Source: Hormiphora californensis
Taxonomy: Eukaryota > Animalia > Ctenophora
DNA length: 64,000 nt
Reading direction: 5' to 3'
NCBI GenBank assembly: GCA_020137815.1
Contig: CM035353.1
Coordinates: 7,502,001-7,566,000 of the forward strand
The translations under genes were made by a program, and so were the position numbers. Under the pieces are notes generated by a model. The model did not search any database and had not been told where the DNA came from. It was given only the letters and a program-made list of their open reading frames with translations. The first letter of the stretch is position 1. Each line of letters begins with the position of its first letter. This document shows positions 3,985 to 62,998 of this stretch, piece after piece.

Positions 3985-6900
3985 TGTCCCAATACAGCTC
4001 TGCCGCGAAGTGCTACTGTGTTCCTCCGTCTTCTAAAACAGGTCCCTGTCCCAATACAGCTCTGCCTGCCACGAATTGCTACTGTGTTCCCCCGCCTTCT
4101 AAAACAGGTCCCTGTCCCATTACAGCTCTGCCACGAATTGCTACTGTCTTCCCCCGCCTTCTAAAACAGGTCCCTGTCCCAGTACAGCTCTGCCACGAAT
4201 TGCTACTGTGTTCCCCGCCTTCTAAAACAGGTCCCTGTCCCAATACAGCTCTGCCTGCCACGAATTGCTACTGTGTTCCCCCGCCTTCTAAAACAGGTCC
4301 CTGTCCCAATACAGCTCTGCCACGAATTGCTACTGTCTTCCTCCGTCTTCTAAAACAGGTCCCTGTTCCACTACAGCTCTGCCACGAATTGCTACTGTGT
4401 TCCTCCGTCTTCTAAAACAGGTCTCTGTCCCAATTCAGCTCTCCCACGAATTGCTACTGTGTTCCCCGCCTTCTAAAACAGGTCCCTGTCCCAATACAGC
4501 TCTGCCACGAATTGCTACTGTGTTCCTCCGTCTTCTAAAACAGGTCCCTGTCCCAATACAGCTCTGCCACGAATTGCTACTGTGTTCCTCCGTCTTCTAA
4601 AACAGGTCCCTGTTCCACTACAGCTCTGCCACGAATTGCTACTGTGTTCCTCCGTCTTCTAAAACAGGTCCCTGTTCCACTACAGCTCTGCCACGAATTG
4701 CTACTGTCTTCCTCCGTCTTCTAAAACAGGTCTCTGTCCCAATTCAGCTCTGCCACGAATTGCTACTGTGTTCCCCGCCTTCTAAAACAGGTCCCTGTCC
4801 CAATACAGCTCTGCCACGAATTGCTACTGTGTTCCCCGTCTTCTAAAACAGGTCCCTGTCACAATACAGCTCTGCCACGAATTGCTACTGTGTTCCCCGC
4901 CTTCTAAAACAGGTCCCTGTCCCAATACAGCTCTGCCACGAATTGCTACTGTCTTCCCCCGCCTTCTAAAACAGGTCCCTGTCCCAATACAGCTCTGCCA
5001 CGATTTGCTACTGTGTTCTTCCGTCTTCTAAAACAGGTCCCTGTCCCAATACAGCTCTGCCACGAATTGCTACTGTGTTCCTCCGCCTTCTAAAACAGGT
5101 CCCTGTCCCAATACAGCTCTGCCACGAATTGCTACTGTCTTCCTCCGTCTTCTAAAACAGGTCCCTGTTCCACTACAGCTCTGCCACGAATTGCTACTGT
5201 GTTCCTCCGTCTTCTAAAACAGGTCTCTGTCCCAATTCAGCTCTCCCACGAATTGCTACTGTGTTCCCCGCCTTCTAAAACAGGTCCCTGTCCCAATACA
5301 GCTCTGCCACGAATTGCTACTGTGTTCCTCCGTCTTCTAAAACAGGTCCCTGTCCCAATACAGCTCTGCCACGAATTGCTACTGTGTTCCTCCGTCTTCT
5401 AAAACAGGTCCCTGTTCCACTACAGCTCTGCCACGAATTGCTACTGTGTTCCTCCGTCTTCTAAAACAGGTCCCTGTTCCACTACAGCTCTGCCACGAAT
5501 TGCTACTGTCTTCCTCCGTCTTCTAAAACAGGTCTCTGTCCCAATTCAGCTCTGCCACGAATTGCTACTGTGTTCCTCCGTCTTCTAAAACAGGTCCCTG
5601 TTCCACTACAGCTCTGCCACGAATTGCTACTGTGTTCCCCGCCTTCTAAAACAGGTCCCTGTCCCAATACAGCTCTGCCACGAATTGCTACTGTGTTCCC
5701 CCACCTTCTAAAACAGGTCCCTGTCCCAATACAGCTCTGCCACGAATTGCTACTGTCTTCCTCCGTCTTCTAAAACAGGTCCCTGTCCCAATTCAGCTCT
5801 GCCACGAATTGCTACTGTGTTCCTCCGTCTTCTAAAACAGGTCCCTGTTCCACTACAGCTCTGCCACGAATTGCTACTGTGTTCCTCCGTCTTCTAAAAC
5901 AGGTCCCTATCCCAATTCAGCTCTGCCACGAATTGCTACTGTGTTCCTCCGTCTTTTAAAACAGGTCCCTGTCCCACTACAGCTCTGCCACGAATTGCTA
6001 CTGTCTTCCTCCGTCTTCTAAAACAGGAGGCGGGGAACACAGTAGCAATTCGTGGCAGAGCTGTAGTGCGACAGGGACCTGTTTTAGAAGACGGAGGAAC
6101 ACAGTAGCAATTCGTGGCAGAGCTGTATTGGGACAGGGACCTGTTTTAGAAGGCGGGGAACACAGTAGCAATTCGTGGCAGAGCTGTAGTGGGACAGGGA
6201 CCTGTTTTAGAAGGCGGGGGAAGACAGTAGCAATTCGTGGCAGAGCTGTATTGGGACAGGGACCTGTTTTAGAAGGCGGGGAACACAGTAGCAATTCGTG
6301 GCAGAGCTGTATTGGGATAGGGACCTGTTTTTGAAGACGGAGGAACACAGTAGCAATTCGTGGCAGAGCTGTATTGGGACAGGGACCTGTTTTAGAAGAC
6401 GGAGGAAGACAGTAGCAATTCGTGGCAGAGCTGTATTGGGACAGGGATCTGTTTTAGAAGGCGGGGGAACACAGTAGCAATTCGTGGCAGAGCTGTAGTG
6501 CGACAGGGACCTGTTTTAGAAGACGGAGGAACACAGTAGCAATTCGTGGCAGAGCTGTATTGGGACAGGGACCTGTTTTAGAAGGCGGGGAACACAGTAG
6601 CAATTCGTGGCAGAGCTGTAGTGGGACAGGGACCTGTTTTAGAAGGCGGGGGAAGACAGTAGCAATTCGTGGCAGAGCTGTATTGGGACAGGGACCTGTT
6701 TTAGAAGGCGGGGAACACAGTAGCAATTCGTGGCAGAGCTGTATTGGGATAGGGACCTGTTTTTGAAGACGGAGGAACACAGTAGCAATTCGTGGCAGAG
6801 CTGTATTGGGACAGGGACCTGTTTTAGAAGACGGAGGAAGACAGTAGCAATTCGTGGCAGAGCTGTATTGGGACAGGGATCTGTTTTAGAAGGCGGGGGA

Positions 6901-7323
6901 AGACAGTAGCAATTCGTGGCAGAGCTGTATTGGGACAGGGACCTGTTTTAGAAGACGGAGGAACACAGTAGCAATTCGTGGCAGAGCTGTATTGGGACAG
7001 GGACCTGTTTTAGAAGACGGAGGAACACAGTAGCAATTCGTGGCAGAGCTGTAGTGGGACAGGGACCTGTTTTAGAAGGCGGGGGAAGACAGTAGCAATT
7101 CGTGGCAGAGCTGTAGTGGGACAGGGACCTGTTTTAGAAGACGGAGGAAGACAGTAGCAATTCGTGGCAGAGCTGTATTGGGACAGGGACCTGTTTTAGA
7201 AGACGGAGGAACACAGTAGCAATTCGTGGCAGAGCTGTAGTGGGACAGGGACCTGTTTTAGAAGGCGGGGAACACAGTAGCAATTCGTGGCAGAGCTGTA
7301 GTGGGACAGGGACCTGTTTTAGA
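3985..7323. repeat. 61-62-bp tandem satellite, ~33 forward units then ~21 inverted units
   Basis: Unit TCTTCTAAAACAGGTCCCTGTCCCAATACAGCTCTGCCACGAATTGCTACTGTGTTCCTCCG; orientation switch at ~6027. Confidence 0.97.
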
Positions 7324-7327
7324 TTCT

Positions 7328-7419
<92 letters not shown>

Positions 7420-7450
7420 TTCTTCTTCTCTTCTTCTTCTTCTTCTTCTT
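7324..7450. repeat. (CTT)n microsatellite
   Basis: Direct reading. Confidence 0.97.
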
Positions 7451-19290: not shown

Positions 19291-20058
19291 CAATGGCAAT
19301 TTCTTACAAGCTGGCAATATTCTCTGGATCTGGGGCTGCTTGTCCTCTCGTCCTCTCCGTTCTCGGTGTGCAGTTCAATACCAAAGAGTGGTTACCACTC
19401 TGTCAATGCTGCATCCTGTCGTTGTTGGTCCTGTACGGGCTCACAAAACCCGGGGACAAAGAACTCAACGGGATCAGGAAGAGGGACCGTGGGGTTCAAT
19501 GGTTCATGTCAAGTCAGCGAGATGTCTGACCTTTCTCCTCGCTCCGCTCTGATCGAAGCACGCGATGCCTGACAGGCCAAGTGAGATTCGGTATTCAAGT
19601 ATCTGTCAAAGAATTGTCTCTGTCGTTGTCCTGTATGGCGTCGCCAATACCCCATTTGACAGTGCGCTCAGACGGGGTCGCGGCGCCAGACAGGCCCACT
19701 ATATCGTTATTATCATCACCCAACTCAATGGCGACTGTCAGACAGGCCATCTGCAAAGGGCTTAGAATCCAATTAATTGGCTAGACCCGCTCCAAGTCAG
19801 TTACTCAGTATTACTGCCATACTTTTAAGGGTGTACTATCTTGAATTTAAATTGTTTTAATTTGTGTCACAGGAGGAAAATAAAACCTTTACTCAACAAA
19901 AATAGACTTTAGCTACAACACATTCGGGCACATCGATATCATCTATATTTATATTGTCTTTTTCACCAGGCTACTATAATAACTACTACTATAATACTAT
20001 ACTAACTACTATAATATAACTACTTTCATAGTCCAAATCAGGTTTTTGCTGGTTTACT

Positions 20059-20871
20059 TTAGTCTGGTGTGGAGGTTGTTGTAGCATGTCGGGTTGGCAT
20101 AACATTAACAAGTATTGGCGGAGCTGTGTTATATTTGTTTGGTGCAAACTCAGCAATCTTCGTTATATCTCGAGCCATGTCTAACAGTTCCTTGATTTCA
20201 ACCATTGTTTTCCTCGCATATTTCACCTGTATTTCCTCCAACACCTTCCCAAACGCATCCTCCCTCTCCTTCTCTTCCCCAACATCATCCGCCAAGCTTT
20301 CCGCTGTCTTTTTAATTCTCAGATCTTCCATCGTTTCATCCATACCCTTGTGAAACTCATTGGATACCATCACGTTCTGTTTAGCCATATCTATAACATC
20401 CATCACCTCAAGATCGGCAACCATAAGATCGGGGTTCGCTAGATAGGTATTAAGGAACCAGTCTTCTCGGATGGCGGGGGTATAAGGAAGTAGGTGCAGG
20501 TCGTAATCATGGTTCAGGGTACACTGACGAGCAGTCGTTAAAGAATTAACGCAGCCACCTGTTATACCCTGCTGGAAATAGTCAAGTCCACAACTCCGTA
20601 CACGATTTGCATACACCGGCAACCCGATATCATCCCACAGTAGGCGTTGGACAGCTAATGCTATGTTAGTTTCACTTTCAATCGGGGGTAAGGTAAACTG
20701 AGGTATCGGGGGCTGTATGTACTCAGACTCCCCTAGACCTGGAAGTGGCTTTAAATAATAATCATCGGTATCGTCAGAGGTACGGGTATTATCGGGGCCC
20801 TTTTCTTGGTACACACTGTCAGCGACAGGAAGGTGGCAAGAAAAGAAAATTAACAAGAGAATCAACCGCAT
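20059..20871 (-). CDS. Intronless 270-aa protein of unknown function, probable signal peptide
   Basis: Longest ORF in window, ATG start, MRLILLLIFFSC hydrophobic N-terminus, non-repetitive composition. Confidence 0.65.
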   Translation of the reverse strand: MRLILLLIFFSCHLPVADSVYQEKGPDNTRTSDDTDDYYLKPLPGLGESEYIQPPIPQFTLPPIESETNIALAVQRLLWDDIGLPVYANRVRSCGLDYFQQGITGGCVNSLTTARQCTLNHDYDLHLLPYTPAIREDWFLNTYLANPDLMVADLEVMDVIDMAKQNVMVSNEFHKGMDETMEDLRIKKTAESLADDVGEEKEREDAFGKVLEEIQVKYARKTMVEIKELLDMARDITKIAEFAPNKYNTAPPILVNVMPTRHATTTSTPD

Positions 20872-21275
20872 CTTTTAGAAATGGAAAATAAACAAATAAC
20901 GTCTGACCCCTTTCTCACACAAGCATAGTTTCTTTAGCGTGCACTTAAAATCATTTTAGGTCGCCAGAGGAGAATGGAGTTATGTGGCTCTGTGAGGGTT
21001 TGGTAGATCAAAGATCGAGGTGAAAGGAGCAAATATAGTTCTCTCTCTCAGCTCATAGCTCTCCATCAGGTTGCCTAACTCAACCCCTTTTCGCGAGCCC
21101 CGCCCGCAGATAGAATCCTTTACAAATGTAAAGGGAGGGTTAGAACAAAACAAGTAACAACCATCAGGTAGACCTTATCCGGAACCTGAGAGACGAGAGT
21201 GCCCAAGCACAGTGGCTAATAACATAGTGTCCAAGCACGACCAGGTTTTCCGGCGAGCGGTGTTATACAAATGTA

Positions 21276-22051
21276 CAGGGTGTTCACGTGGGATCTTTAC
21301 AAGAGTTTGGCTTCACCCAGAAAAAGTTGACAAAATTAGCTTATGAAACTTCATACACGGTCGCTTGTAGTGGGAAAACGGTAATGGAAAACGAAGATAC
21401 AGTAAGACGACGCGCAACCGTGACCAATCAGGGCGCTAGTACGTGCTGACACACGAACTTTTTGCCGCGCGTTATGCACCGTGCACGTCTCCTTACTGTA
21501 TTTTGCGTTACCGTATTTTGACTGCAAGCAGCACTGAGACTTGGACTATTATATACCCTCATTCAACGTCAAGGTTCCTGGTGTTTCCGGAGCTCTAATA
21601 CCCTGGAAGTGTGTTTTTGGCATCAAAACTTCCAGAAGGAATTTTTTGCTGTGTGTGGATGTGTTTTATGAACTCAAAAGTTCGAAAAAAGTGCCTGGAA
21701 AGACTCTAAAATATCAATTTTTGCCGTTTTTGAGCTGCTTTTGGGGCCTTTCCAGCCAGTTTATTTGGAACTTGGTGACTGAACCACACATCCAATCATC
21801 ATGACACTTTTGAATTGATATGGAAAATACCCAAAAAAACATTCTAGCAAAGTCTCAGCACCAGCAAAAAATTCATACTGGTAGTTTTGATGCCAAAAAC
21901 ACACTTCCAGGGGCATCAGAGCTCCGGAAACACCAGGAACCTTGAATGAGGGTATAGAATAGTCCAAGTATGAAGTTTCATAAGCTAATTTTGTCAACTT
22001 TTTTCTGGGTGAAGCCCAACGCTCGTAAAGATCCCACATGAACACCGGCCT
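21276..22051. mobile_element. Tc1/mariner-type MITE
   Basis: TA-CAGGGTGTTC...GAACACC(GG)CCTG-TA, ~175-bp TIRs; left TIR interrupted. Confidence 0.75.
21356..21537. mobile_element. ~180-bp MITE nested in left TIR
   Basis: Missing from the mirror TIR; inverted copy at 56378-56540, fragment at ~39625. Confidence 0.8.
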
Positions 22052-22138
22052 GTATACAAAACAACGCAACCAAATTTTTTGAACATTTTATTTAAAATTG
22101 CGAATTTAAAAATATGTAGATGGATAAGAATAATTTAG

Positions 22139-25100
22139 TCATATCCCTCTTTTAAGGATTTCCGTGTACTCTCTCATCAGTGTATTACCCTCCTCGGTTA
22201 GTTTTCTCATTTCAGCCTGGTGTCTCTCTGTCTGCTCTATGTGCCGTTTGTTCTCCTCCCGCATTTTCTGGTAGACCCTTATCAGTTCCTGGGTGACGTG
22301 TTTGTCAGGTCGGGCTGGTCTCTTCACAGCTGTACTCGATATGGTGCTGCTGCTGCTGGTGGTGGTGGGATTCATTTCTACTTTGGATGTGTTGCTATCC
22401 GTGGTACCGATATTGGCGTGCAGAATTGCGTAGTAACTTGGCTCCGGGAGTACACCTCCTTTCTGCATTGTTCTCAGATACTCGTTTTTAACCTTTGCCA
22501 CCTTATCTGTCACTGCCTTCCCAGTCAAGTTTAGCCCATAGTCCTCGTTCATTTTCAGAGCGATTAGCCTGTAGGGTAACACGCTGGTAATGGTATGACA
22601 TAATTTAAAACTCATTTGCAGCTATAAAACGCACGCATGTAGGGGAAGGGGGGCAGGGTACGCCATGGTCATTGGCCATAGTACTTTTCAGGTAATGGTC
22701 CCAGTACTTTTCATGATTAGACAAAAACTATGACTTTTTGGCCTAAAAACCGAAAAATGTTCCAAGCTTCGCTATCGCTTCGCCCGCGCCCAATCTATTC
22801 AAATTTGCAAATGAAAAGTTTCAAAACTTCCCCTACAGCTGTATGCCAGATAAAACAGCTAATAATCCCATATATTACCGGTTGATATGAGACTGGTTCC
22901 CGTTTGCTTCCCGTTCTGTCTCAAAGGTATCTCCGTAGTAGAGCTCACAAAGCTTCTTAGTGGCTACTTCTGGCCACTGGTACCTAGTTCCCCTGAAACA
23001 CGCGTGCAGTGAGAGGAATCATTGGAATGAATCTTAACCTGCTGGAATCCAAACACTTGTACTACTGGGCAATTTCTGATTTGCCGCATACGGCGTCTAG
23101 ACGGCGTCGCAACGCCGTCTAAACGGCGTCTAGACGGTATACCGTCTGGACGGGTTTCGGTGAAATCAGCTAAAAACGGTACCGAAATTGCTTGCGACGG
23201 GTTATAGACGGTATCAGACGGTCTCTAGACGGGTTATAGACGGTATCAGACGGTGTTGCGACGGTATCAGACGGTCTCTAGACGGTGTCTAGACGGTACC
23301 GTCCCGGCGTCTGGACGGCGTCTGGACGGTGTCTAGACGGTATCCGTCCGAAGTTGAGACGGCACGTCTGAAAATTGTACCAGACGTTGAGACGGACTTT
23401 TAGAACTCCGTCTGTATTTCAGACGGAGTTTTAAAAGTACGTCTCAACGCAGTCTAAAGGAAAATCGATGAAAGTACCGTCTAGACAACGTCTCAACTGA
23501 AACCGGTCAACATACCGTCTAAACAACGTCTAGACAACGTCTAAACAGAATCTCGCGATTCAGTTTCAAATACCGTCTAGACAACTTCTCCAGCAATTTC
23601 GATAAGAATACCGTCTAAACAACGTCTAGACAACGTCTCAAATAATGATGTCTAGACTCGACCGTTTTCGAAGACCATTCTGGATTACCCATGCCAGTTG
23701 GAATTAGTGGTAGATGTGTGCCTATTGAATGAAAATTACACATGTGTTTAACCCAGCGGGGGGAACTCAGGTTCTTCGTGCCAGCTGAGTTCTTCGAGCT
23801 CAGTCCCGTTGCCGTGGACCTGGTTGGCTGATGGTCCAGTGATTACGGTCAAATCACACCGGCTCTCTCCCCAATCTTGGGGAGTAAACTTTGCCAGAGA
23901 CCTTGCCGAACTCAACTATGGCACCGAGCTCTTGCAGTGCGGCTGGTCCCTGCTGGGATTTGGTTCGGCGGTCGATTGATGAGCGGTTGGTTGACGATTG
24001 ATATCAGTCGTTGATCGATCGTTTGTCGGTCGGTCGTCGGGCTGAGTCTTAGTGAGGATCCCGGTTGAGCTGATAATCTCACCCCAGCCAGTAACCTTGT
24101 TACACATGGCAACCCATGATTTGTAATCACCGAGGGCCTCTGCCTACTAGGCATGCCTGATGACCCTTCGGCTGTCTCCCATTTAATTATGGGGGTAAAT
24201 TCTACGCCAGAGAACTAGCCTCCCTCAATTATGGCAACCCATGATTTGTAATCACCCGGCAGCTGTAGCCTTTAAAACAGCCCTCCTGTCCAACATCCCA
24301 TATTGGTCGGACGGAGGTTACCTTCTCTCGCAAAAATAGGGGTTATTCCCCTGGGGAACCTCTGCCCAAATTTTTGCCACATACTACCTTTGCAATATAT
24401 CTAGAACAATCCTCCTCACTAACAAACAGATCAAGCAACACACTTGATTTGGTAAAATTCTCCAAACTAATAGCCAAAAGTAACCTATTCGATTAAACCA
24501 TCCCCAACCATCCCGACCTGAAAGAAGTAGCAAACCACAGGGCAAGAATCGCTACGGCCGGGGAATTCCAACAAAACCACATCATAAGGGACCCACGATT
24601 AAGGTAGGGCAGGTCTGGGCCATAACAAAGGGCCACCTCCGCCGTATGGCAAGTAATTACCCCGCAATAGTGCAACCCCTGGGAGCTGATAATTTGCCAA
24701 ATGCTCACCAGAAGTTTACATAAGCGTTTTTCATGCTTATCTGTGCTTGCTAAGAAATTAGCTGTCCGGACCCCCAGGTTGCATGCTGATAAGTACTGCT
24801 AGCGGTTTTGACCAAAGACCTGAGGTGTGATAAGATATTTCAGCCGTCACCGATTAGATGGTGAACCCACGGTATTGTCATATTCGGCAACCCACCTACC
24901 TCTACAGCTCCCTGGAGCAGTAGTAACCAAAGACCAGTCTGTGAGACAGGTAAATTCCATCCATTGTCCTGACAATATAGGTATGTCAGTCTAATATTAG
25001 ATTCACTGTATCAAATACTCTTCTTGTGATGCCGGCGAAGGTTCGAGGGAAATGTTGAGCTTGCTCGACAAAATACCAGGACCCAAACCGGAACAACATC

Positions 25101-26277
25101 AACATTATCCCTACGTGTGGGGGACGGTGGCGAAGAGTGATATTAATATAGGTTGTCTGCCGACCATTGTGGGGCAGTAAAGTGGGAGGAATGACGGGCG
25201 GTGCAAAACACACACACACACACACATGTGTTTAACCAGCACAGTCGTACCGCGATGCTCGGGGACGGGAAAGGGGTTATCCTCCCGGTAATTTTCGTAC
25301 CCAACTTCAAATAAATCGAGGTCCAACTGTACATCATTTTCATTATCAAAAAGGCACACATTCATTGTAATACAACTGTGAGATACTGTCTATGGCTGAT
25401 ACTATCAGTGATAGATAGTGTCGGTTATGAGACGTTGTTTAGACGGTATCTGTATCGGATTCGCTTAAGACGTTGTCTAGACGTTGTTTAGACGGTATTC
25501 GTATCGAAATTGCTGGAGAAGTTGTCTAGACGGTATTTGAAACTGAATCGCGAGATTCTGTTTAGACGTTGTCTAGACGTTGTTTAGACGGTATGTTGAC
25601 CGGTTTCAGTTGAGACGTTGTCTAGACGGTACTTTCATCGATTTTCCTTTAGACTGCGTTGAGACGTACTTTTAAAACTCCGTCTGAAATACAGACGGAG
25701 TTCTAAAAGTCCGTCTCAACGTCTGGTACAATTTTCAGACGTGCCGTCTCAACTTCGGACGGATACCGTCTAGACACCGTCCAGACGCCGTCCAGACGCC
25801 GGGACGGTACCGTCTAGACACCGTCTAGAGACCGTCTGATACCGTCGCAACACCGTCTGATACCGTCTATAACCCGTCTAGATACCGTCTGATACCGTCT
25901 ATAACCCGTCTCAAGCAATTTCGGTACCGTTTTTAGCTGATTTCACCGAAACCCGTCCAGACGGTATACCGTCTAGACGCCGTCTAGACGGCGTTGCGAC
26001 GCCGTCTAGACGCCGTATGCGGCAAATCAGAAATTGCCGTACTACTGAATCTTATAACCACTATAACAGACATAATCCTGAAGCCCGCATCCCCCCTATC
26101 TTGAATGATTCAGTGAATCCCCCCCCCCCCCCCCCCAATACCGAATCTCCTCATTATATAATCCTCATTATATCCTGAATCCTCTCAAATGAATCCTTAC
26201 CGTTTCTGGGGTGGTGGGGCTGTGATAGAAATCTCAACAGGTTCGTTAACTACATCCAATATCTCTCCCTTCATCAT
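22139..26277 (-). CDS. Myb/SANT-like (trihelix, Harbinger ORF1/MSANTD-type) protein, 3 exons, ~206 aa
   Basis: Exons 26277-26201, 22992-22879, 22568-22139 with GT-AG and matching phases; YQWPEVATKKLCELY...LIALKMNEDYGLNLTGKAVTDKVAKVKNEY...YYAILHANIG, C-terminal coiled coil. Confidence 0.75.
23068..26038. mobile_element. MULE/foldback-like non-autonomous transposon in intron 1 of Myb/SANT gene
   Basis: ~570-bp TIRs built of TAGACGG/CCGTCTA repeats; perfect 9-bp TSD GTACTACTG (23059-67, 26039-47). Confidence 0.92.
23754..25221 (+). mobile_element. Retroposon-like insert with highly structured 5' region and (CA)n tail
   Basis: 16-bp flanking direct repeat ACACATGTGTTTAACC (23738-53, 25222-37); CA tail; no recognisable RT ORF. 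Confidence 0.7.
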
Positions 26278-27600
26278 TGGATAGCTGATCGAGGCAGTTT
26301 ATATCAAATATTAACAAGGGGCCATTAAAAATTTGGTGAAAAGTAAAGCAAATGAATGGGAAACTGGGATGGCCTGGCCACATTTCACAATCGCATGGTC
26401 TAGCTAGCAGTAGAAAGCGCAACAGGGTACATTTCTCTAGCAAGAGTAAGGTGTCAAGTGACATGTACACATACAGTGAGAGAAAGGAGAGAATAATCGA
26501 GGATGTAAAGTAAGAGATAGTGAGAGACAGAGGGGGAAGAATACATATATCATTTCTCTGGCTGGTTGCCCATTTTCTGCTAATTGCTATCTCTCTTTCT
26601 CTTACTTGCAACCAGATTGGCTGAATGAAATCAGGTGTTGAGTCATGTGCTAGGCGCTCATTATACGTTGCTGTCGCTTACTGGAGTAAAGTCACGTGGA
26701 GAACAGAGAGTTGCCTGCACGTGAGGGATCATGTGATCAACATCAGCCAATCGAGTTGCAAGAGAGGGAGAGAAAGATCGAGAGAGAACTATAAAGTGAG
26801 AGAGAGAGAGGATGATCGAGAGGAGGGAGAACGAGGGGTGGAGAGCCGGAGAGAAAGGAAGATGGAGAGAGAGAGAAAAGGGAAGAAGTAAAGAGAGGGA
26901 AATTGAGAGAGGGATAAAAAAGAGAGAGATTAACCATCGTAATCGGCTTCCTGACGTACGTTGGAACTTTAAAACTGAGAAAGAGAGAGAGGCCGGAGAC
27001 GTGCAGTTATAGCTAATAGGAGGAGGGGTGGCATGCTGCAGCCCCTTTAATTTTGGCGAGGTTCACCCACAGTCCACACTTGGTGACATAGACACCTGGC
27101 GCGACCCCCGCACACAGGTGTCACTCTATGTCACCAAAGTCCACACCCGCCTCATGGCCCACCGACCACCAATATCTCAAAATGACTTGAAACTGGGTGT
27201 ATGAACAATTGGCAGTAAACCTAACAATTTTCTCCCCAGAGAAAGAGAGGGAGAGAGAGACACACGCTTGCATGGGCAGGTCGCCATTGGATTGGTTTTG
27301 TTTGCATTCACTTCAGTTTCACATTTAAAAGTTAAACAAGATATGATTCACAATTTGAACAGATATGATTCACAATTTGAACAGAAAGATATATATTCAA
27401 CAATTCAAACACAATAACATCATTTACTGCAACAATCTTCATTGACATCTTCATAGATAACAGACTTCGGTTCTATAACGGTTGTACCTTCTCCCCCTCC
27501 CTCACTCACTCTCGCTAAATTCTTTAGTCTATTCAACACTACCAGTCTGTTACCAAGTTCGTGTAGAGATACACGGCGGGAGGGTGTGCCTTGACTACTA

Positions 27601-30600
27601 TTACACAGAGCCTAGACTTTGTTTTCGTCTGGCCACTGTGATCTTCAGGTACGCAACGAAGTCTCTGTTGACGGCGATGTAAAGTAGAGGGTTCGCTGAA
27701 AAGAGAGAGGCAGTGTGTTAGACAAATGATAGTGCTGCACTGCTGCAGGCAGGCCCATTTAAGGGGGATGGGGCCATCAAATGGACCATGCTTGTTGGGC
27801 TTTGGATTGGTGACCTTGAACTGTCGCAGTTTTGAGGATGTGGCGCGGATGCGCGTGTAAGAATAAGAAGTACAGCTTGTCAGCAGGAGTGGCGGAACCG
27901 GGAAGGGCTAGAGAGGTGTCGCGCGCAGTTGATAAAGGGCGGAAAATACGCTGACGATTGATACTTCCTATTCTAAAACGCGCACCCGCGCCACATCTTC
28001 AAAACTGCGACACAGCACGGGAATGTGATTTGTGCAGATAATGATAGGGGGCTTGTTGTAAGTTTGTGTCACGGCACCTACCGAATGATCCACAGAAGTA
28101 GGCACAGATCCGAAGTCTCTCTAACCACATTGGCCCATGGTCTACACGGTGTATGTAGGTCCAGAGGTGTGTGACCATACTGGGTGACCAGGTCAGTATG
28201 GTCACCGAGCACAGCCCAACTACTGTTATTATCCCTGGAGAGGGGGGGGGGGTGTTAATAATACATACCTCTGTAAGCTCCCTGTAAATTACAGTGTACC
28301 CGGCTCCTCTGGTACCTTCAAGGTGAGGTACTGTACCCGATATTACAGTGTAATATCGGGTATAGTACCTCGCCTAGAAGGTACCAGGGGAGTAGTATAT
28401 ACTGCAACAATAGGTACGAGGGGAGGGGGAGGTATTATATTAGGGGTATTATAGTACCTCGTAGGTGTGGCTGTCTCCTTGGCAAAGAACAAATTTTAGA
28501 AAAGTCAGAGGCTCGTCTTTGAAGTGCTTCGACCACCTGCAACGATAAAAATCATGTAAATATATTGGGTAGAAAATAATGACATATCTGATTTTACAGA
28601 TTGATTTTACAAAAAAGTCAAACAAATTGTTTTTAGAACGCTACTATTTTCATGAATTCATGACCCCACTATAACTGTGGTCTGTGAGACCAATCACATA
28701 TATTGGTAGTACTAGTACCTCCTTTTCCTGCCTTATCTTGGTCCTTGCCAGAAGACAGAGGAGTATGTTAGCACCAAGAATTAGGATGAAGGGAAGAAGA
28801 CCAAGAATAGTGGATAGAAGGAGGCGTCGTAGTGGGGAGTTCATGTGTCGTACAATACACATTGCAATATCTGAGGGGAGGGGAGTTCATGTGTTGTACA
28901 ATACACATTGCAATATCTGAGGGGAGGGGAGTTCATGTGTCGTACAATACACATTGCAATATCTGAGGGGAGGGGAGTTCATGTGTCGTACAATACACAT
29001 TGCAATATCTGAGGGGAGGGGAGTTCATGTGTCGTACAATACACATTGCAATATCTGAGGGGAGGGGAGTTCATGTGTCGTACAATACACATTGCAATAT
29101 CTGAGGGGAGGGGAGTTCATGTGTCGTACAATACACATTGCAATATCTGAGGGGAGGGGAGTTCATGTGTCGTACAATACACATTGCAATATCTGAGGGG
29201 AGGGGAGTTCATGTGTCGTACAATACACATTGCAATATCTGAGGGGAGGGGAGTTCATGTGTCGTACAATACACATTGCAATATCTGAGGGGAGGGGGAG
29301 TTCATGTGTCGTACAATACACATTGCAATATCTGAGGGGAGGGGAGTTCATGTGTCGTACAATACACATTGCAATATCTGAGGGGAGGGGAGTTCATGTG
29401 TCGTACAATACACATTGCAATATCTGAGGGGAGGGGGAGTTCATGTGTCGTACAATACACATTGCAATATCTGAGGGGAGGGGAGTTCATGTGTCGTACA
29501 ATACACATTGCAATATCTGAGGGGAGGGGAGTTCATGTGTCGTACAATACACATTGCAATATCTGAGGGGAGGGGAGTTCATACTTCATGTGTCGTACAA
29601 TACACATTGCAATATCTGAGGGGAGGGGAGTTCATGTGTCGTACAATCACATTGCAATATCTGAGGGGAGGGGAGTTCATGTGTCGTACAATACACATTG
29701 CAATATCTGAGGGGAGGGGAGTTCATGTGTCGTACAATACACATTGCAATATCTGAGGGGAGGGGAGTTCATGTGTCGTACAATACACATTGCAATATCT
29801 GAGGGGAGGGGAGTTCATGTGTCGTACAATACACATTGCAATATCTGAGGGGAGGGGAGTTCATGTGTCGTACAATACACATTGCAATATCTGAGGGGAG
29901 GGGAGTTCATGTGTCGTACAATACACATTGCAATATCTGAGGGGAGGGGAGTTCATGTGTCGTACAATACACATTGCAATATCTGAGGGGAGGGGAGTTC
30001 ATGTGTCGTACAATACACATTGCAATATCTGAGGGGAGGGGAGTTCATGTGTCGTACAATACACATTGCTATTATATCTGAGGGGAGGGGAGTTCATGTG
30101 TCGTACAATACACATTGCAATATCTGAGGGGAGGGGAGTTCATGTGTCGTACAATACACATTGCAATATCTGAGGGGAGGGGAGTTCATGTGTCGTACAA
30201 TACACATTGCAATATCTGAGGGGGGGGGGAGTTCATGTGTCGTACAATACACATTGCAATATCTGAGGGGAGGGGAGTTCATGTGTCGTACAATACACAT
30301 TGCAATATCTGAGGGGAGGGGAGTTCATGTGTCGTACAATACACATTGCAATATCTGAGGGGAGGGGAGTTCATGTGTCGTACAATACATGCATTGCTAT
30401 TATATCTGAGGGGGGGGGGGGGGAGGGAGTGAAGTTGGTATATTCCAACGAATATTAACATGGGGGGGGGGGAGGGGGAGTATGGTATATTCTAAAACGA
30501 GAAAGATTTGTTGTGTAACCTCTTAACTCACTGTCAGGTCAATACTCTGACAGCTACAGCTAACTCAACATGAAGTTTCGAAACAATATTTCCCTAAAAT

Positions 30601-38534: not shown

Positions 38535-39556
38535 TAGTAAGGGAATTTTAGTATATTTTCTCAGCAAAATTTTTAACAAGCTAATTTTTTCACCAATAGG
38601 TCCGGATAGGTGTCTAGTATCACCAAAAAAAAGTACACGATAATCGGAAGTGCGCATGCGCACTGAGCGCGCAAGAAGTAAACACATGTAAATACATGTA
38701 TTTCTAGCCTGGCACGAAAACCCAAAAACCATCTTAGGAGACGAGTAGAGAAAAAATCAAGGGCACTAGATTGTGTAGCGTCCTCGCATTAGTGGGGGTA
38801 GGTGCTGGAATTAAGTCTCTATCTCATCTGGTTAATTAGATAATTGGATAATTAGATATGCACATAACCGTATTTTGGCTATATGGCTATAGCCACTTAG
38901 GAATGGTTTAGAGACTTTTCATTGGTGCCATTTTGTTCAGAAACAAAATTCAATCTAAGAGTTGTGGAAAAATTTAGAGCCTATCTCTTACCGTTTTGGC
39001 GTAATTTACGGTCAAAGAAGGCCAATTAACTAATTTTTTGGCATTTTCGGCTGATTTGGCATACTTTGACCGCAAATAACGCCAAAACGGTAAGAGATAG
39101 GCTCTAAATTTTTCCACAACTCTTAGATTGAAATTTTTTTCTGAACAAAATGGCACCAATGAAAAGTCTCTAAACCATTCCTAAGTGGTTATAGCCATAT
39201 AGCCAAAATACGGTTATGCGCATATCTAATTATCCAATTATCTAATTAACCAGATGAGATAGAGACTTAATTCCAGCACCTATCCCCACTAATGCGAGGA
39301 CGCTACACAATCTAGTGCCCTTGATTTTTTCTCTACTCGTCTCCTAAGATGGTTTTTGGGTTTTCGTGTGAGGCTAGAAATACATGTATTTACATGTGTT
39401 TACTTCTTGCGCGCTCGGCGCGCGTGCGCACTTCCGATTATCGTGTACTTTTTTTTGGTGATACTAGACACCTATCCGGACCTATTGGTGAAGAAATTAG
39501 CTTGTTAAAAATTTTGCTGAAAACTTGGCCCTTTTTTTACTAAAATCCCCTTACTA
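38535..39556. mobile_element. Academ-like ~1-kb palindromic element
   Basis: TAGT...ACTA termini, GTA duplicated on both sides, ~480-bp arms. Confidence 0.82.
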
Positions 39557-50306: not shown

Positions 50307-51247
50307 TAGTAGGGTCGGTTGTGGGAAGTTGGGTCTGGAATTTTAAATTTGACTTGCTGATATGATTAGGGACTCTATAAAAAGTCCAAAGTACCATCCC
50401 ACAGGTCTCTACCACCACCAGTTCACTAATTAGTCGTAATTATGTGATTTATGACGTTATCTCCAATTAGCACTAATAATACCAGTTCCTGGTCACTTAG
50501 AGCTTAGATTTTGATACCAGCTGATAGAGGATCACTAGATTAGTGGGCATTCAAAATTTTAGGTCGATCGGAGTTATGGTCGAGGAGTTATAACCGTTTT
50601 TCCGTTTGGCTGGCGGTTGGCTGGCACCACGTGGGATTACGGGTTTAGGTCGTCGTAGGAGGTCGTCATTGGTCGCGTTCGATCGGGCTCGATGAGGTGA
50701 TCAAAACCTAGTGGGGCCAGACCTTGGCCCCACCCCGTTCTTGGGTTATTAGGCTTTTTCGGTTTTGGCGGGAAAATATTTTGGCGGGAAACCGAAAAAG
50801 CCCAATAACCCAAGAACGGGGTGGGGCCAAGGTCTGGCCCCACTAGGTTTTGATCACCTCATCGAGCCCGATCGAACGTGACCAATGACGACCTCCCACG
50901 ACGACCTAAACCCGTAATCCCACGTGGTGCCAGCCAACCGCCAGCCAAACGGAAAAACGGTTATAACTCCTCGACCATAACTCCGATCGACCTAAAATTT
51001 TGAATGCCCACTTATCTAGCGATCCTCTATCAGCTGGTATCAAAATCTAAGCTCTAAGTGACCAGGAACTGGTATTATTAGTGCTAATTGGAGATAACGT
51101 CATAAATCACATAATTACGACTAATTAGTGAACTGGTGGTGGTAGAGACCTGTGGGATGGTACTTTGGACTTTTTATAGAGTCCCTAATCATATCAGCAA
51201 GTAAAATTTAAAATTCCAGACCCAACTTCCCACAACCGACCCTACTA
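50307..51247. mobile_element. Academ-like ~940-bp palindromic element
   Basis: TAGTAGGG...CCCTACTA, GTA duplicated on both sides, ~458-bp near-perfect arms. Confidence 0.85.
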
Positions 51248-54037
51248 GTATTCTGTCTTGCACACGCTTCAATCCTTTCTATTTAAGTAACGAGCGTGGT
51301 ACACGCTAGACGGAAAAATAAAGGAGTGTCAGGGACATGTTCCTTTTACAGGTGGTTGTTGTTGGACGTTAGACAAGGAGCGATTCTCGGATTGCTACAC
51401 TGAAAAGACAGCATTCTCTCAGTACACTATGCCCCCAATCGGTAAATTAAATATATGAACAACATCAGATCATTTTCATTCATCGTGTGAATTGTGATTT
51501 GCTGATTAAAACTTATTTCTCAGAAACGTATGCCCCATTCTACAAACGGTATAACGGCGCCGACACCGGAAACGAAGGTGCAACTGAGGCCAATTAAACC
51601 CAGGATCTGTTTACACTTTTTAAAATGAAGGATTTTATGAAGGATTTGATTTAAAGGAACTGATTTTGTTAACCAATCATTTGTATTTTTGTAAATCTTA
51701 TAAATTTTTACCTAAATAACTGTTTAAACTTTTCTCGTATCGGCTCCTGCTGTCTGCAGTGGACATGACACCGGTTTGTCAGTGCACTAAATTGGGTTGA
51801 CACTTGACACGTCAAGCGGCGCCGCCAGACATCTTTCTTTTCTTTTAAAATAATAAATTTAAATCAATTGGGCCAGGTTCGGAAATCACAGACGGCCATA
51901 CCGAAATTAGCTAATGAACAAATAACAGTCTTTGCAAGCCGCAAGGACATTCTAAAAAAAATTAAAAAAGCGCAAACTTTTTTAAAAAACACCTTGGCCT
52001 TGGCCTTTTTCGCTTTTAATTAATCAAATATTAATTGCGCGCCGCATTTTTCTTTCCATAATTTGCCGCGCGTTGATATTCCAATCATTACCGCGCGTTC
52101 CGGACCCTATTCCATTTCCTGATGAAATCTGTTTGGCGGCGCCGATCCGATCCTGTCTGGTGCCGCCAACCCCATATGACTATGAGAGCAATGAGAATCA
52201 AAACGGGGTCTGGCGCCAGGCGCCGCCAAACAGAATGAAATATAATTTAATTCAATTCAATTATATTATATTTCATTCTGTTTGCCGACGCCAGACCCCG
52301 TTTTGATTCAATGAATTAATTAGACTGAGTTTTTAAAATTCAAAAAAATTAGTAAAAAAGTTTACACATTTAAACGTTTCTTGACCAGTTATATCTGCAT
52401 TTTAATCACAAAGTGCAATATCAAAAAGTAAATTTATAGTCTCAGTCTCACTTTCAGTTTCACTTTCAGTCTTTGTGATTGTCTAATTTAAGTCTAAATG
52501 GAGTTGGACAAACTTACTTAATACAGATGTACTCTAGTTCAAGTTACCTAATGCATATTATACATATGACCTTCAGTATTACTCAGCTCAGACTCAAAGT
52601 TATATGCTGAGCCATATGAGTATGACGCTATCAATCCGAAACGATGTTTCATTGCCTCAAGAACTAGAAGAAATGTACAACAAAATTATCAAATTAAAGG
52701 TGGACAACATATTGATATTGTTCGGTCCCATGGCTGTACTTCAATCACCACATGGTAACGCTATTATATAGTGGATGTTGTTGGTTCCGGCTCATTTTGC
52801 AGAGGATCAACAAGTGTGGTTCCTGTTATAACAGGAGAGGTGCCTGTGGCTGCTGGTGTGGAGGCTGATACAGCTGCTGGAGAGGTGCCTGTGGCTGCTG
52901 GTGTGGTGCCTGAGGCTGCTGGAGAGGTGCCTGTGGTAGTGGGGTCTGGCACGGTGGCAGCTGCAGGGGATGTTTGACCTCCTGGGGAGGTGCTGGTGGT
53001 GGAATTGTCTATTGCCGCTCTGTTAGCCCTGAGCAAGGAGGATCCTCGTCTGAAAGATAAAACATGGTCAATTGATGATTTCAAAATCAAAACGGGGTCT
53101 GGTGGGGCCAGACAGCTCCAACCCATGGCTCATGATGCCCCATTATTTAGCACATGGACACAACCCCCCCACCCCTGCAGCTTTATCTATACCTTGGAAA
53201 TGTTTCGTTGTTAGAGGTAGAGTTGAAGGTGCCTGGTCCTATAACGGATAGTCTCCCCGCTGGTCTATCTACAGATGGGGGGAGGATGTGGATTGAGGGT
53301 CGTGTCATCGTACCCCGCCTGCGGAACCAAGCTACACACCGGTTAATACACATCGGAACACGACAAAATGTACACATTGGGACCCCGATAACATGATAAC
53401 TTCTATTACGTGGTGTAATGTACCCCCTCTTACTTTTTCCCTCGTCAGAGCCCCCTCCTCCAGTGGATAGGACGCTGGTTGCTTGGTATAGCATGCGTGT
53501 TGCGCTCCTCTGCATGTCTGCATTACACTGGATCTGTACTAGCGCGTCCACAAACCCTGCCATAGTGTGGGACATGTAGAACCAAAGGTACAGGTATACC
53601 TCTCCTGTATCACTGTTACCTGAAAGTGAAAGAGTTTTTAATCCATGGTTACCATGGTTACACACAAAAACTAAGTGACAAGTTAGATCAATTAACTTGA
53701 TCTATTATTCGTTTCACTTTCTTTTTCGGCTCTTGGAGTTCCCTATTGAGCACTGTTGGTGGGAAGTTAACAAGTCATATGCAGCTCAGTTGCCATGGTA
53801 ACCAACTTGTTGTTACCAGTGGTAACTGTGTGCTAACCTGCCATTGTTTTGAAGACAGTGTTATCTGTTTTGAACATGTACACCACATTATAAGCCACGG
53901 TTACAAAATGAGCCACAAGATAGGTAGCACAAAGAGCAAAGGTACACTTTATCACCGCCATTTCCTTGGCCATCATTCGGATCTCTGAAGGGGTTGGAAT
54001 CATGAAATAAAAAGGGGGTCATTAGCGGATCGAGGGG

Positions 54038-54165
54038 TGCAATATAGCAACCTGATTACTGAATCAACCCCACTTTCCACTCCAGGGATATAAATGAACA
54101 CCCCCCCTTTATATCCCTGAAGTGGAAAGTGGGGTTGATTCAGTAATCAGGTTGCTATATTGCAC
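54038..54165. repeat. ~128-bp palindrome
   Basis: GTGCAATATAGCAACCTG...CAGGTTGCTATATTGCAC. Confidence 0.85.
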
Positions 54166-61939: not shown

Positions 61940-62998
61940 ATTGACCTGTGAAAAAGAGCTTGAGATACACATGACTGTCACATATAATCTGCCACACAAA
62001 ATAACAAGAAACAAAGCGTTTAACTTTCCAATCAAATATAACATGTCTCAATTTTGTCGGGATAACATATGAGGAACATTGAGACATTTTCCCAAGGGAA
62101 ATTTAATGAGTGACGAAAATTTGAGACAACCACGGCAGTTCATGCAAGAAAACAAAATCCATTGCAGTTAAGTGGTGATGTATGTGTGACATGTACAAGC
62201 TAAACAATGTCCCACACAATTACACATGTCATTTGGCGGCGTTGAGTGATTGCCAAGGTTACCTCAGCTATTATACTACTACATGTTTAAATGTTTATAT
62301 GCAGACCTCCTGATATGTCAAATTTACCTCAAATTTACACCGCTGGTATGGCTATAGGTCACTAAACCTTACAAAACGATTCCCTAAACCAACACCCTCC
62401 ATACCAATGCCGTGGTATGGAGGAGGATGTTGGTATGGAGGTATGGGTGCTGCCCCTGCACGTGCAAATTGGTGAGTGGACGTGTGTTCCTGCTGCAATT
62501 CAGTGACTGTGTAATCTCACAATCGCCAGCACAGGGAATGGTTATCTATAGATTCGGTACGATCGCCCATGTTTGATAATCAGAGTTTTTGTTATTCTCT
62601 CTGTGGCTGTTCAGCCACAGAGAGAATAACAAAAACTCTGATTATCAAACATGAGGCTAATAAACAGTTATCCGATCACCCAACTGTCTACGATCGCCCA
62701 TGTGTTCTATAATATTCATAACTAGCCCGGTAGTGACGAATCAGCATCATTAGAATATCGCTAACAGCTGAACATTGCAGTGATTTATCCTCTTATGGAC
62801 TATTGTAGCTGCTACATATATTGATTTTACCGCTAGATCGACAAAAAGAAAACAAACTCTACCATCGCTTACTTCTATACATATTGATATTGTCAATTGT
62901 GTTGATGAAAAATTAAAAAAACTCTACCAGTGCTTGCTTCTAATACATATTAATATTCTATTGATGAAACAGCTTTAATAATACTACACAATAGCAAC

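Follow-up and report, generated by a model that had tools for sequence, protein, structure and literature searches.

A hairpin rich in G-U wobble pairs in a putative ctenophore retroposon, probably derived by RNA editing and fixed by retroposition

Results

General features of the locus

The window analysed in this study, 64,000 nucleotides of Hormiphora californensis (GCA_020137815.1, contig CM035353.1, positions 7,502,001 to 7,566,000 of the forward strand), is repeat-rich animal DNA. An intronless histone H1 gene at 1419-1916 apparently stands alone among the open reading frames scanned; its best database match is the EukProt entry sb/3471140 (96%), an identifier in the style of Pleurobrachia gene models. 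On the minus strand a 270-amino-acid open frame (20059-20871) has no Pfam match above cut-off. Tandem repeats are found at 3985-7450, where a 62-nt satellite is present in 33 copies on one strand and then in 21 inverted copies followed by (TTC)43, and at 28834-30418, where a 46-nt unit occurs in 34 copies with 97% matches. At 38558-39523, 50307-51247, 54037-54165 and 62568-62653 there are long DNA palindromes that are near-perfect, their cores containing 0-1 wobble. The features of the region around the hairpin studied here are listed in Table 1.

Table 1. Features of the hairpin region and the evidence on which each was placed (positions in the window)
Feature	Position	Strand	Evidence or remark
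5' arm of the G-U helix	23951..24000	+	Fold and pairing; 23965-24000 made of 11-nt repeats
Loop AUAU (DNA ATAT)	24001..24004	+	Fold and pairing
3' arm of the G-U helix	24005..24054	+	Fold and pairing
Lower stem around the module	23935..24072	+	23935-23946 pairs with 24061-24072; four more G-U pairs
Hairpin module common to other repeat contexts	23947..24057	+	Contigs of X2, X3 and X6 have loose ends at 23947/23948 and 24054/24057
Putative non-coding, many-copy, non-autonomous retroposon, about 1.47 kb with tail	23754..25221	+	Tail and flanking target duplication; an empty site; even cover, with one unitig that begins at 23754
Left target-site duplication, 16 bp	23738..23753	+	Direct repeat
Right target-site duplication, 16 bp	25222..25237	+	Direct repeat and empty-site junction in run X6; first 4 bases could be tail
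(CA)n 3' tail	25209..25221	+	
Three loosely repeated units in the 5' part of the element	23836..24270	+	Exact 26-nt duplicate, 24106-24131 / 24231-24256
Outer foldback DNA element	23068..26038	.	574-nt inverted arms, 23068-23641 / 25465-26038, 99%

The hairpin lies in a putative retroposon inserted into a foldback element

The hairpin is positioned about 200 nt into an insertion that runs from 23754 to about 25221 and of which the empty site is present in the contigs of run X6. The inserted element is nested in a foldback DNA element, presumably Mutator-like, that is flanked by a 9-bp target duplication (23059-23067 and 26039-26047, so that it occupies 23059-26047 in all) and has arms composed of 11-nt repeats. 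Site-specific insertion into the foldback element is not supported: run X5 covers both elements, none of its listed pieces spans the junction and the piece of the inserted element starts at 23754, which speaks weakly against it.

Non-autonomous non-LTR retroposons with microsatellite tails, either SINE-like or LINE-derived, are a known class. The inserted element shares with them the target duplication, the simple-repeat tail, the lack of a reading frame and the fixed 5' end, but differs by its length of 1.47 kb and by the lack of a detectable tRNA or Rfam head. A six-frame scan of the element found no Pfam family, ARAGORN predicted no tRNA gene and no Rfam family was matched at gathering level. 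A classical pol III SINE was rejected, as in addition to the ARAGORN result no tRNA-, 5S- or 7SL-type Rfam match was found at E<=5 and the element contains three internal runs of T4-T5. Ribozyme families were absent among the 11 Rfam matches at E<=5 in 20000-28000, and core motifs of HDV-like, hammerhead or twister ribozymes were not seen in order by eye. A target duplication, a simple repeat as 3' tail, dispersal in many copies and the absence of an intact open reading frame are the features by which a non-autonomous non-LTR retroposon would be recognized, and the element has all of them. The 16-bp duplication and the (CA)n tail suggest target-primed reverse transcription, the plus strand being the RNA strand, and, taken with the empty site, passage of the element through RNA, for which the plus strand is the likely template.

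The hairpin is a strand-specific RNA structure

In a preliminary description of this locus, made from the letters alone, a 50-bp hairpin was reported that contained 23 G-U and 27 Watson-Crick pairs around an AUAU loop. Base-by-base pairing of 23951-24000 with 24054-24005 reproduced it exactly, without a single mismatch. The Watson-Crick pairs consist of 16 G-C and 11 A-U pairs, the wobble G's are divided over the left arm (11) and the right arm (12), and the first pair outside the stem is C.A. Regarded as DNA, the arms are complementary at 27 of 50 positions, which is the approximately 54% given in that description. The structure had also been claimed to exist at the RNA level and on the plus strand only, and this was borne out by folding of 23931-24074: the plus strand RNA reached -86 kcal/mol (z -10.4, none of 200 shuffles equally stable) and the minus strand RNA -21.8 kcal/mol (z +0.4). 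A hairpin of single-stranded DNA was rejected, since at -17.5 kcal/mol (z -1.3) the long stem was absent. When the 104-mer was shuffled 1000 times by mononucleotides, no stem exceeded 19 pairs. With a difference between the strands of 58 kcal/mol per 120 nt the hairpin is the most asymmetric locus of the 64 kb, the next one reaching 26 kcal/mol. The hairpin is real, RNA-level and strand-specific. Elsewhere in the element folds ranged from z -3.8 to +2.0, and only the plus strand at 24200-24340 stands out, as a multibranch fold (z -3.8, none of 200 shuffles equally stable) that has no Rfam match.

The apical 36 pairs (23965-24000) repeat their purine/pyrimidine pattern at a lag of 11 nt (23 of 25 positions matching). 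Avoidance of adjacent wobbles, of which there are 8 against 10.1 expected, is not supported. The stem contains 11% A, compared with 19% and, on its 3' side, 29% in the flanking parts, and the changes are confined to the RNA duplex and to one strand. As had been noted before, the other long palindromes of the window are near-perfect at the DNA level and carry 0-2 wobbles, for instance none in the 41 bp of 62568-62653 and one in the 90 bp of 50676-50878; they serve as unedited controls for the hairpin. Relatives of either arm that match at more than 40 of 50 positions when transitions are tolerated do not occur in the 64-kb window.

Other copies preserve the pairing

The stretch or a part of it is present in 20 of the 24 listed sequencing runs. 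Contigs were compared for five of these (X2, X3, X5, X6 and X13, the last being one of five RNA runs that contain it) with an identity floor of 80%. In X2, 6458 contigs fell on 1.8 kb and covered the element evenly, which indicates that it has many copies, although their number cannot be read from the depth. Over 23830-24024 the main X3 piece (depth 2138) does not differ from the window, which makes the G-U state the family consensus. Forms that lack the hairpin exist as well. In one of them 23939 is joined to 24064 via 11 other letters (depth 531 in X3, 36 and 14 in X2), and in a second, represented by an X3 contig, the sequence departs at 23950 and resumes near 24063. Conversely, the module bounded by 23947/8 and 24054/7 is also found in foreign sequence, where the 5' flanks are of at least three kinds and the 3' flanks of at least two. 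Besides the hairpin-less joint, X3 contains a joint from 24105 back to 23918 (depth 710) that suggests a tandem array of a unit of about 75 nt from the element. The segment 24475-24659 exists as two subfamilies of similar depth with 28 differences, and the 5' and 3' parts are nearly identical; it would be a swapped or fast-changing middle of the element.

Two variant families of the module were distinguished. Family B (X3 record 12, X2 record 3, X6 record 19) differs from the window at 14-15 of 107 places and family C (X3 record 11) at 4 of 77, and of these differences 7 of 14 and 2 of 4, respectively, are visible, apparently only in approximately 23978-24024. In family B three A-U pairs have become G-U by A>G (23982, 24014 and 24018), two G-U pairs have become A-U by G>A (23986 and 23990), and T>C at 23999 is accompanied by A>G at 24006, which converts a U-A into a C-G pair; this compensatory change does not stem from ADAR. 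Family C shows G>A at 23981 and A>G at 23982. All 8 visible variants preserve plus-strand pairing. For the six pair-level changes of family B, all of which keep the pairing, the chance expectation is 0.4^6 = 0.004. Seven of the 8 variants belong to the A/G class (p 0.035, the eligible sites being 15 purines and 15 pyrimidines) and 6 of 7 in family B alone (p 0.06); over the whole element in X3 there are 24 A/G and 24 C/T changes. The stem energy calculated with the visible family-B letters, -67.6, is virtually that of the window, -67.1. At two AU/AU steps the family of the window and family B wobble on opposite sides, and never on both.

One RNA contig, from X13, is identical to the DNA (0 differences); such a contig shows neither strand nor editing. 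Searches for the arm pattern yielded three loci in metagenome contigs, which are chance matches without similarity beyond a core of 19-20 nt, and none in viral or genome contigs. When two reading frames that cover the hairpin by chance were used to probe for predicted proteins of related copies, no match was obtained.

The direction of change looks to be A to G

The wobbles could descend from A-U pairs by A>G or from G-C pairs by C>T. In 23965-24000 the Watson-Crick homologues at lag 11 voted A-U for nine wobbles and G-C for one (p 0.0003 under a null that keeps the purine/pyrimidine pattern); the 11-nt repeats had first been spotted by reading wobbles as A-U, so this choice was not blind. When the letters of families B and C were added to the repeat columns, wobbles made up 9 of 15 pairs in A-U-only columns and none of the 10 pairs in G-C-only columns (p 0.002); in three mixed columns they made up 4 of 9. 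Over all 50 pairs the lag-11 vote was 8 for A-U against 5 for G-C (p 0.07). With family-B letters alone it was 2 against 5, a reversal that arose because in family B three A-U voters are gone and one C-G has been added. A lag of 3 gave 1 vote for A-U and 10 for G-C.

Relatives provide a second view. At each of the four places where the lower stem has a wobble G (23941, 23942, 24063 and 24069) an A is found in relatives, at the first three of them in hairpin-less forms by an ungapped reading of the 11 letters, and the three informative wobble pairs of the main stem likewise have A, not C, in relatives (3/3). At 24069, a U-paired place preceded by A, 99.8-100% of the depth reads A in each of 4 runs, and the window has G. 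Since essentially all other copies have A, the G of the window is a private A>G, the only one found. The preliminary description had named copy-specific A>G changes from a perfect ancestor as a sign of editing; apart from this position such changes are mostly absent, the edited state being a consensus that was amplified after the change. The ancestor of the stem would have had 31% G+C if all wobbles had been A-U and 75% if all had been G-C, compared with 43% in the window. An unedited or lightly edited source is absent from the 64-kb window, and an all-A-U version, being 78% identical, would fall under the 80% floor of the contig comparison. These tests, which were chosen after the data had been seen and are not mutually independent, make the direction look like A>G.

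Retained A's are found mainly after G

A-to-I editing is reported to favour a 5' neighbour U or A and to avoid G in all metazoans examined, and to have repeats as its main targets, also in a ctenophore (PMC9989829). Of the 11 A's retained in the stem, 9 follow G (null 5.7, p 0.037) and 1 follows U or A (p 0.021). Among U-preceded sites 9 of 10 are G, against 6 of 10 among sites after a fixed G. The window and family B together have 12 A states, 11 of them after G (p 0.009). Of the six G's common to both, not one follows G in both (p 0.003); family C holds A at one of these six.

The placement of the G's is also more stable than 97.6% of random placements, and context and stability are correlated (r -0.48). 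At matched energy the probability of at least 9 A's after G was 0.16, and the other context test gave p 0.08. Simulations were started from an all-A-U stem, with ADAR-like weights chosen by the author. At least 9 A's after G were obtained in 93% of the ADAR-like runs against 10-20% of the stability-driven runs, and the stability-driven simulation produced the lack of A after U or A in 3-8% of runs; the ADAR-like simulation reached the observed energy in 12%. The surviving A's thus appear to stand mostly in the context that ADAR disfavours, a reading that is confounded with helix stability.

Discussion

Origin of the wobble pairs

The preliminary description had left the choice between ADAR editing, C-to-U deamination and selection for a long helix. 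From sequence comparison, ADAR editing of the RNA duplex, fixed by retroposition, is probably the main source of the wobbles, and we assign it a probability of roughly 0.7. It is favoured because of the apparent direction A>G, the neighbour context and the fact that the strand that forms the helix is the inferred RNA strand (+) of the host retroposon. Ctenophores are reported to possess ADAR2-like genes and no ADAR1 (PMC4323055).

The events may be pictured as follows. An A-T-rich DNA palindrome with 11-nt internal repeats, of the type carried by small DNA transposons, would have been captured in the 5' part of a non-autonomous retroposon, its stem presumably being mostly A-U where it now is G-U. 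The plus strand RNA would have acted as template for target-primed reverse transcription by a LINE. In this RNA the duplex would have been edited A-to-I by ADAR and the inosine copied as G into germline DNA. One or several rounds may have turned as many as 23 of the 34 U-paired A's into G, sparing mainly the A's after G. The edited master would then have been amplified, its edited state becoming the family consensus, and other repeat families would hold differently edited versions. The edit patterns of the families agree at the best sites and differ at poor ones, which would fit independent editing and equally well descent from one partly edited ancestor. At present the helix may for the most part be carried along and tolerated, its disruption being selected against to some extent. 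Some such selection probably acts in addition to editing, in view of the compensatory pair, the near-equal energies and the fact that no pair-breaking change was seen, and the existence of hairpin-less relatives suggests that the hairpin is not essential. More speculatively, several retroposon families could have taken up one palindrome and each have been edited and reinserted independently until the editable A's were exhausted, and G-U-saturated masters would have won as non-palindromic DNA and as poorer dsRNA targets. This ratchet-like extension seems to us possible, though doubtful.

Could selection alone, without any ADAR, have shaped the hairpin? The helix would then be a working RNA element in which transitions drift among A-U, G-U and G-C and mismatches are purged. 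The family-B changes, one of them compensatory and all retaining the pairing, the energy equal to that of the window, the stable placement of the G's, the opposite-side wobbles at two AU/AU steps and the occurrence of the module in several contexts all agree with it. It does not readily account, however, for the G-C repeat columns without wobbles, for the intact CpG of the stem (observed/expected 2.0 versus 0.73 in the window), or for 46% G-U pairs at a cost of 13 kcal/mol relative to an all-A-U stem, which means that stability has not been maximised. The abundance of hairpin-less relatives (531 versus 2138 in X3 depth) and the rarity with which stability-driven simulations lack A after U or A also count against it, and we consider selection as the sole cause unlikely. 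Decay of C to T on the plus strand, by CpG methylation or a cytidine deaminase, would have turned G-C pairs into wobbles. The C-G pair of family B at 23999/24006, both in CpG, and the lag-3 vote agree with this, and two wobbles of the repeat column (23977 and 23988) may indeed be C-to-T. Yet of the 16 retained stem C's 12 stand in CpG and 11 come after T, the G-C columns are devoid of wobbles (0/10), the implied ancestor would be far richer in G+C than the window and decay of DNA would also have yielded A.C mismatches, of which the hairpin has none. As a general source of the wobbles it is thus highly improbable.

A precursor of small RNAs, either a microRNA or a hairpin endo-siRNA kept for the host, was considered as well. 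A long clean helix would suit it, Dicer is present in the ctenophore lineage and Rfam reports a weak match to MIR6136. That match is structural only, with 38.5 bits against a gathering threshold of 99, and the hairpin belongs to a mobile element with many copies. Drosha, Pasha and microRNAs are moreover reported to be lacking in a ctenophore (PMC3563456), and we regard this origin as scarcely credible.

Comparison with known systems

Hyperediting of the ADAR type in avian retroviruses, as in the U3 of Rous-associated virus and the inverted repeat of avian leukosis virus, resembles the hairpin in that a one-strand A>G cluster in an inverted repeat involves about half or more of the A's and is fixed by reverse transcription; the review states that nearly half of the A's in retroviral inverted repeats were changed to G (PMC12925331). 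The avian cases are viral clones, whereas here the element is inherited, present in many copies, non-LTR and non-coding, its consensus has the edited state, and other repeat contexts hold differently edited versions. APOBEC editing of LTR retrotransposons likewise leaves a strand-biased deaminase scar in genomic copies of retroelements. It consists, however, of G-to-A changes on the sense strand, takes place on cDNA, has no tie to a duplex and is reported absent from invertebrates (PMC4866542), whereas here A-to-G restricted to an RNA helix of an invertebrate is concerned. APOBEC editing as such was rejected, as the sense-strand stem is G-rich and A-poor. Metazoan A-to-I editing of young repeats has the fold-back young-repeat substrate and the 5' neighbour bias in common with the hairpin; those edits exist in RNA only (PMC9989829), and here the change sits in the DNA. 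Feedback of A-to-I editing into DNA is treated as a debated hypothesis (PMC10209271). A literature search, for which subscription literature was mostly outside reach, listed no report from ctenophores of retroposon copies that are rich in G-U or edited by ADAR, and none for a non-LTR family there. The hairpin likely behaves like ADAR hyperediting fixed by reverse transcription.

Significance

A-to-I editing is usually viewed as a transient mark on RNA. An edited retroposon that is inherited and amplified would be a direct route into DNA and would at the same time leave a testable record. Copies of which the changes have been polarised can reveal the site preference of germline ADAR; in this lineage, which is without ADAR1, the enzyme is probably ADAR2-like. 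A long helix rich in G-U within a repeat would then not necessarily be a sign of selection on RNA structure, which is of relevance to structure-prediction screens.
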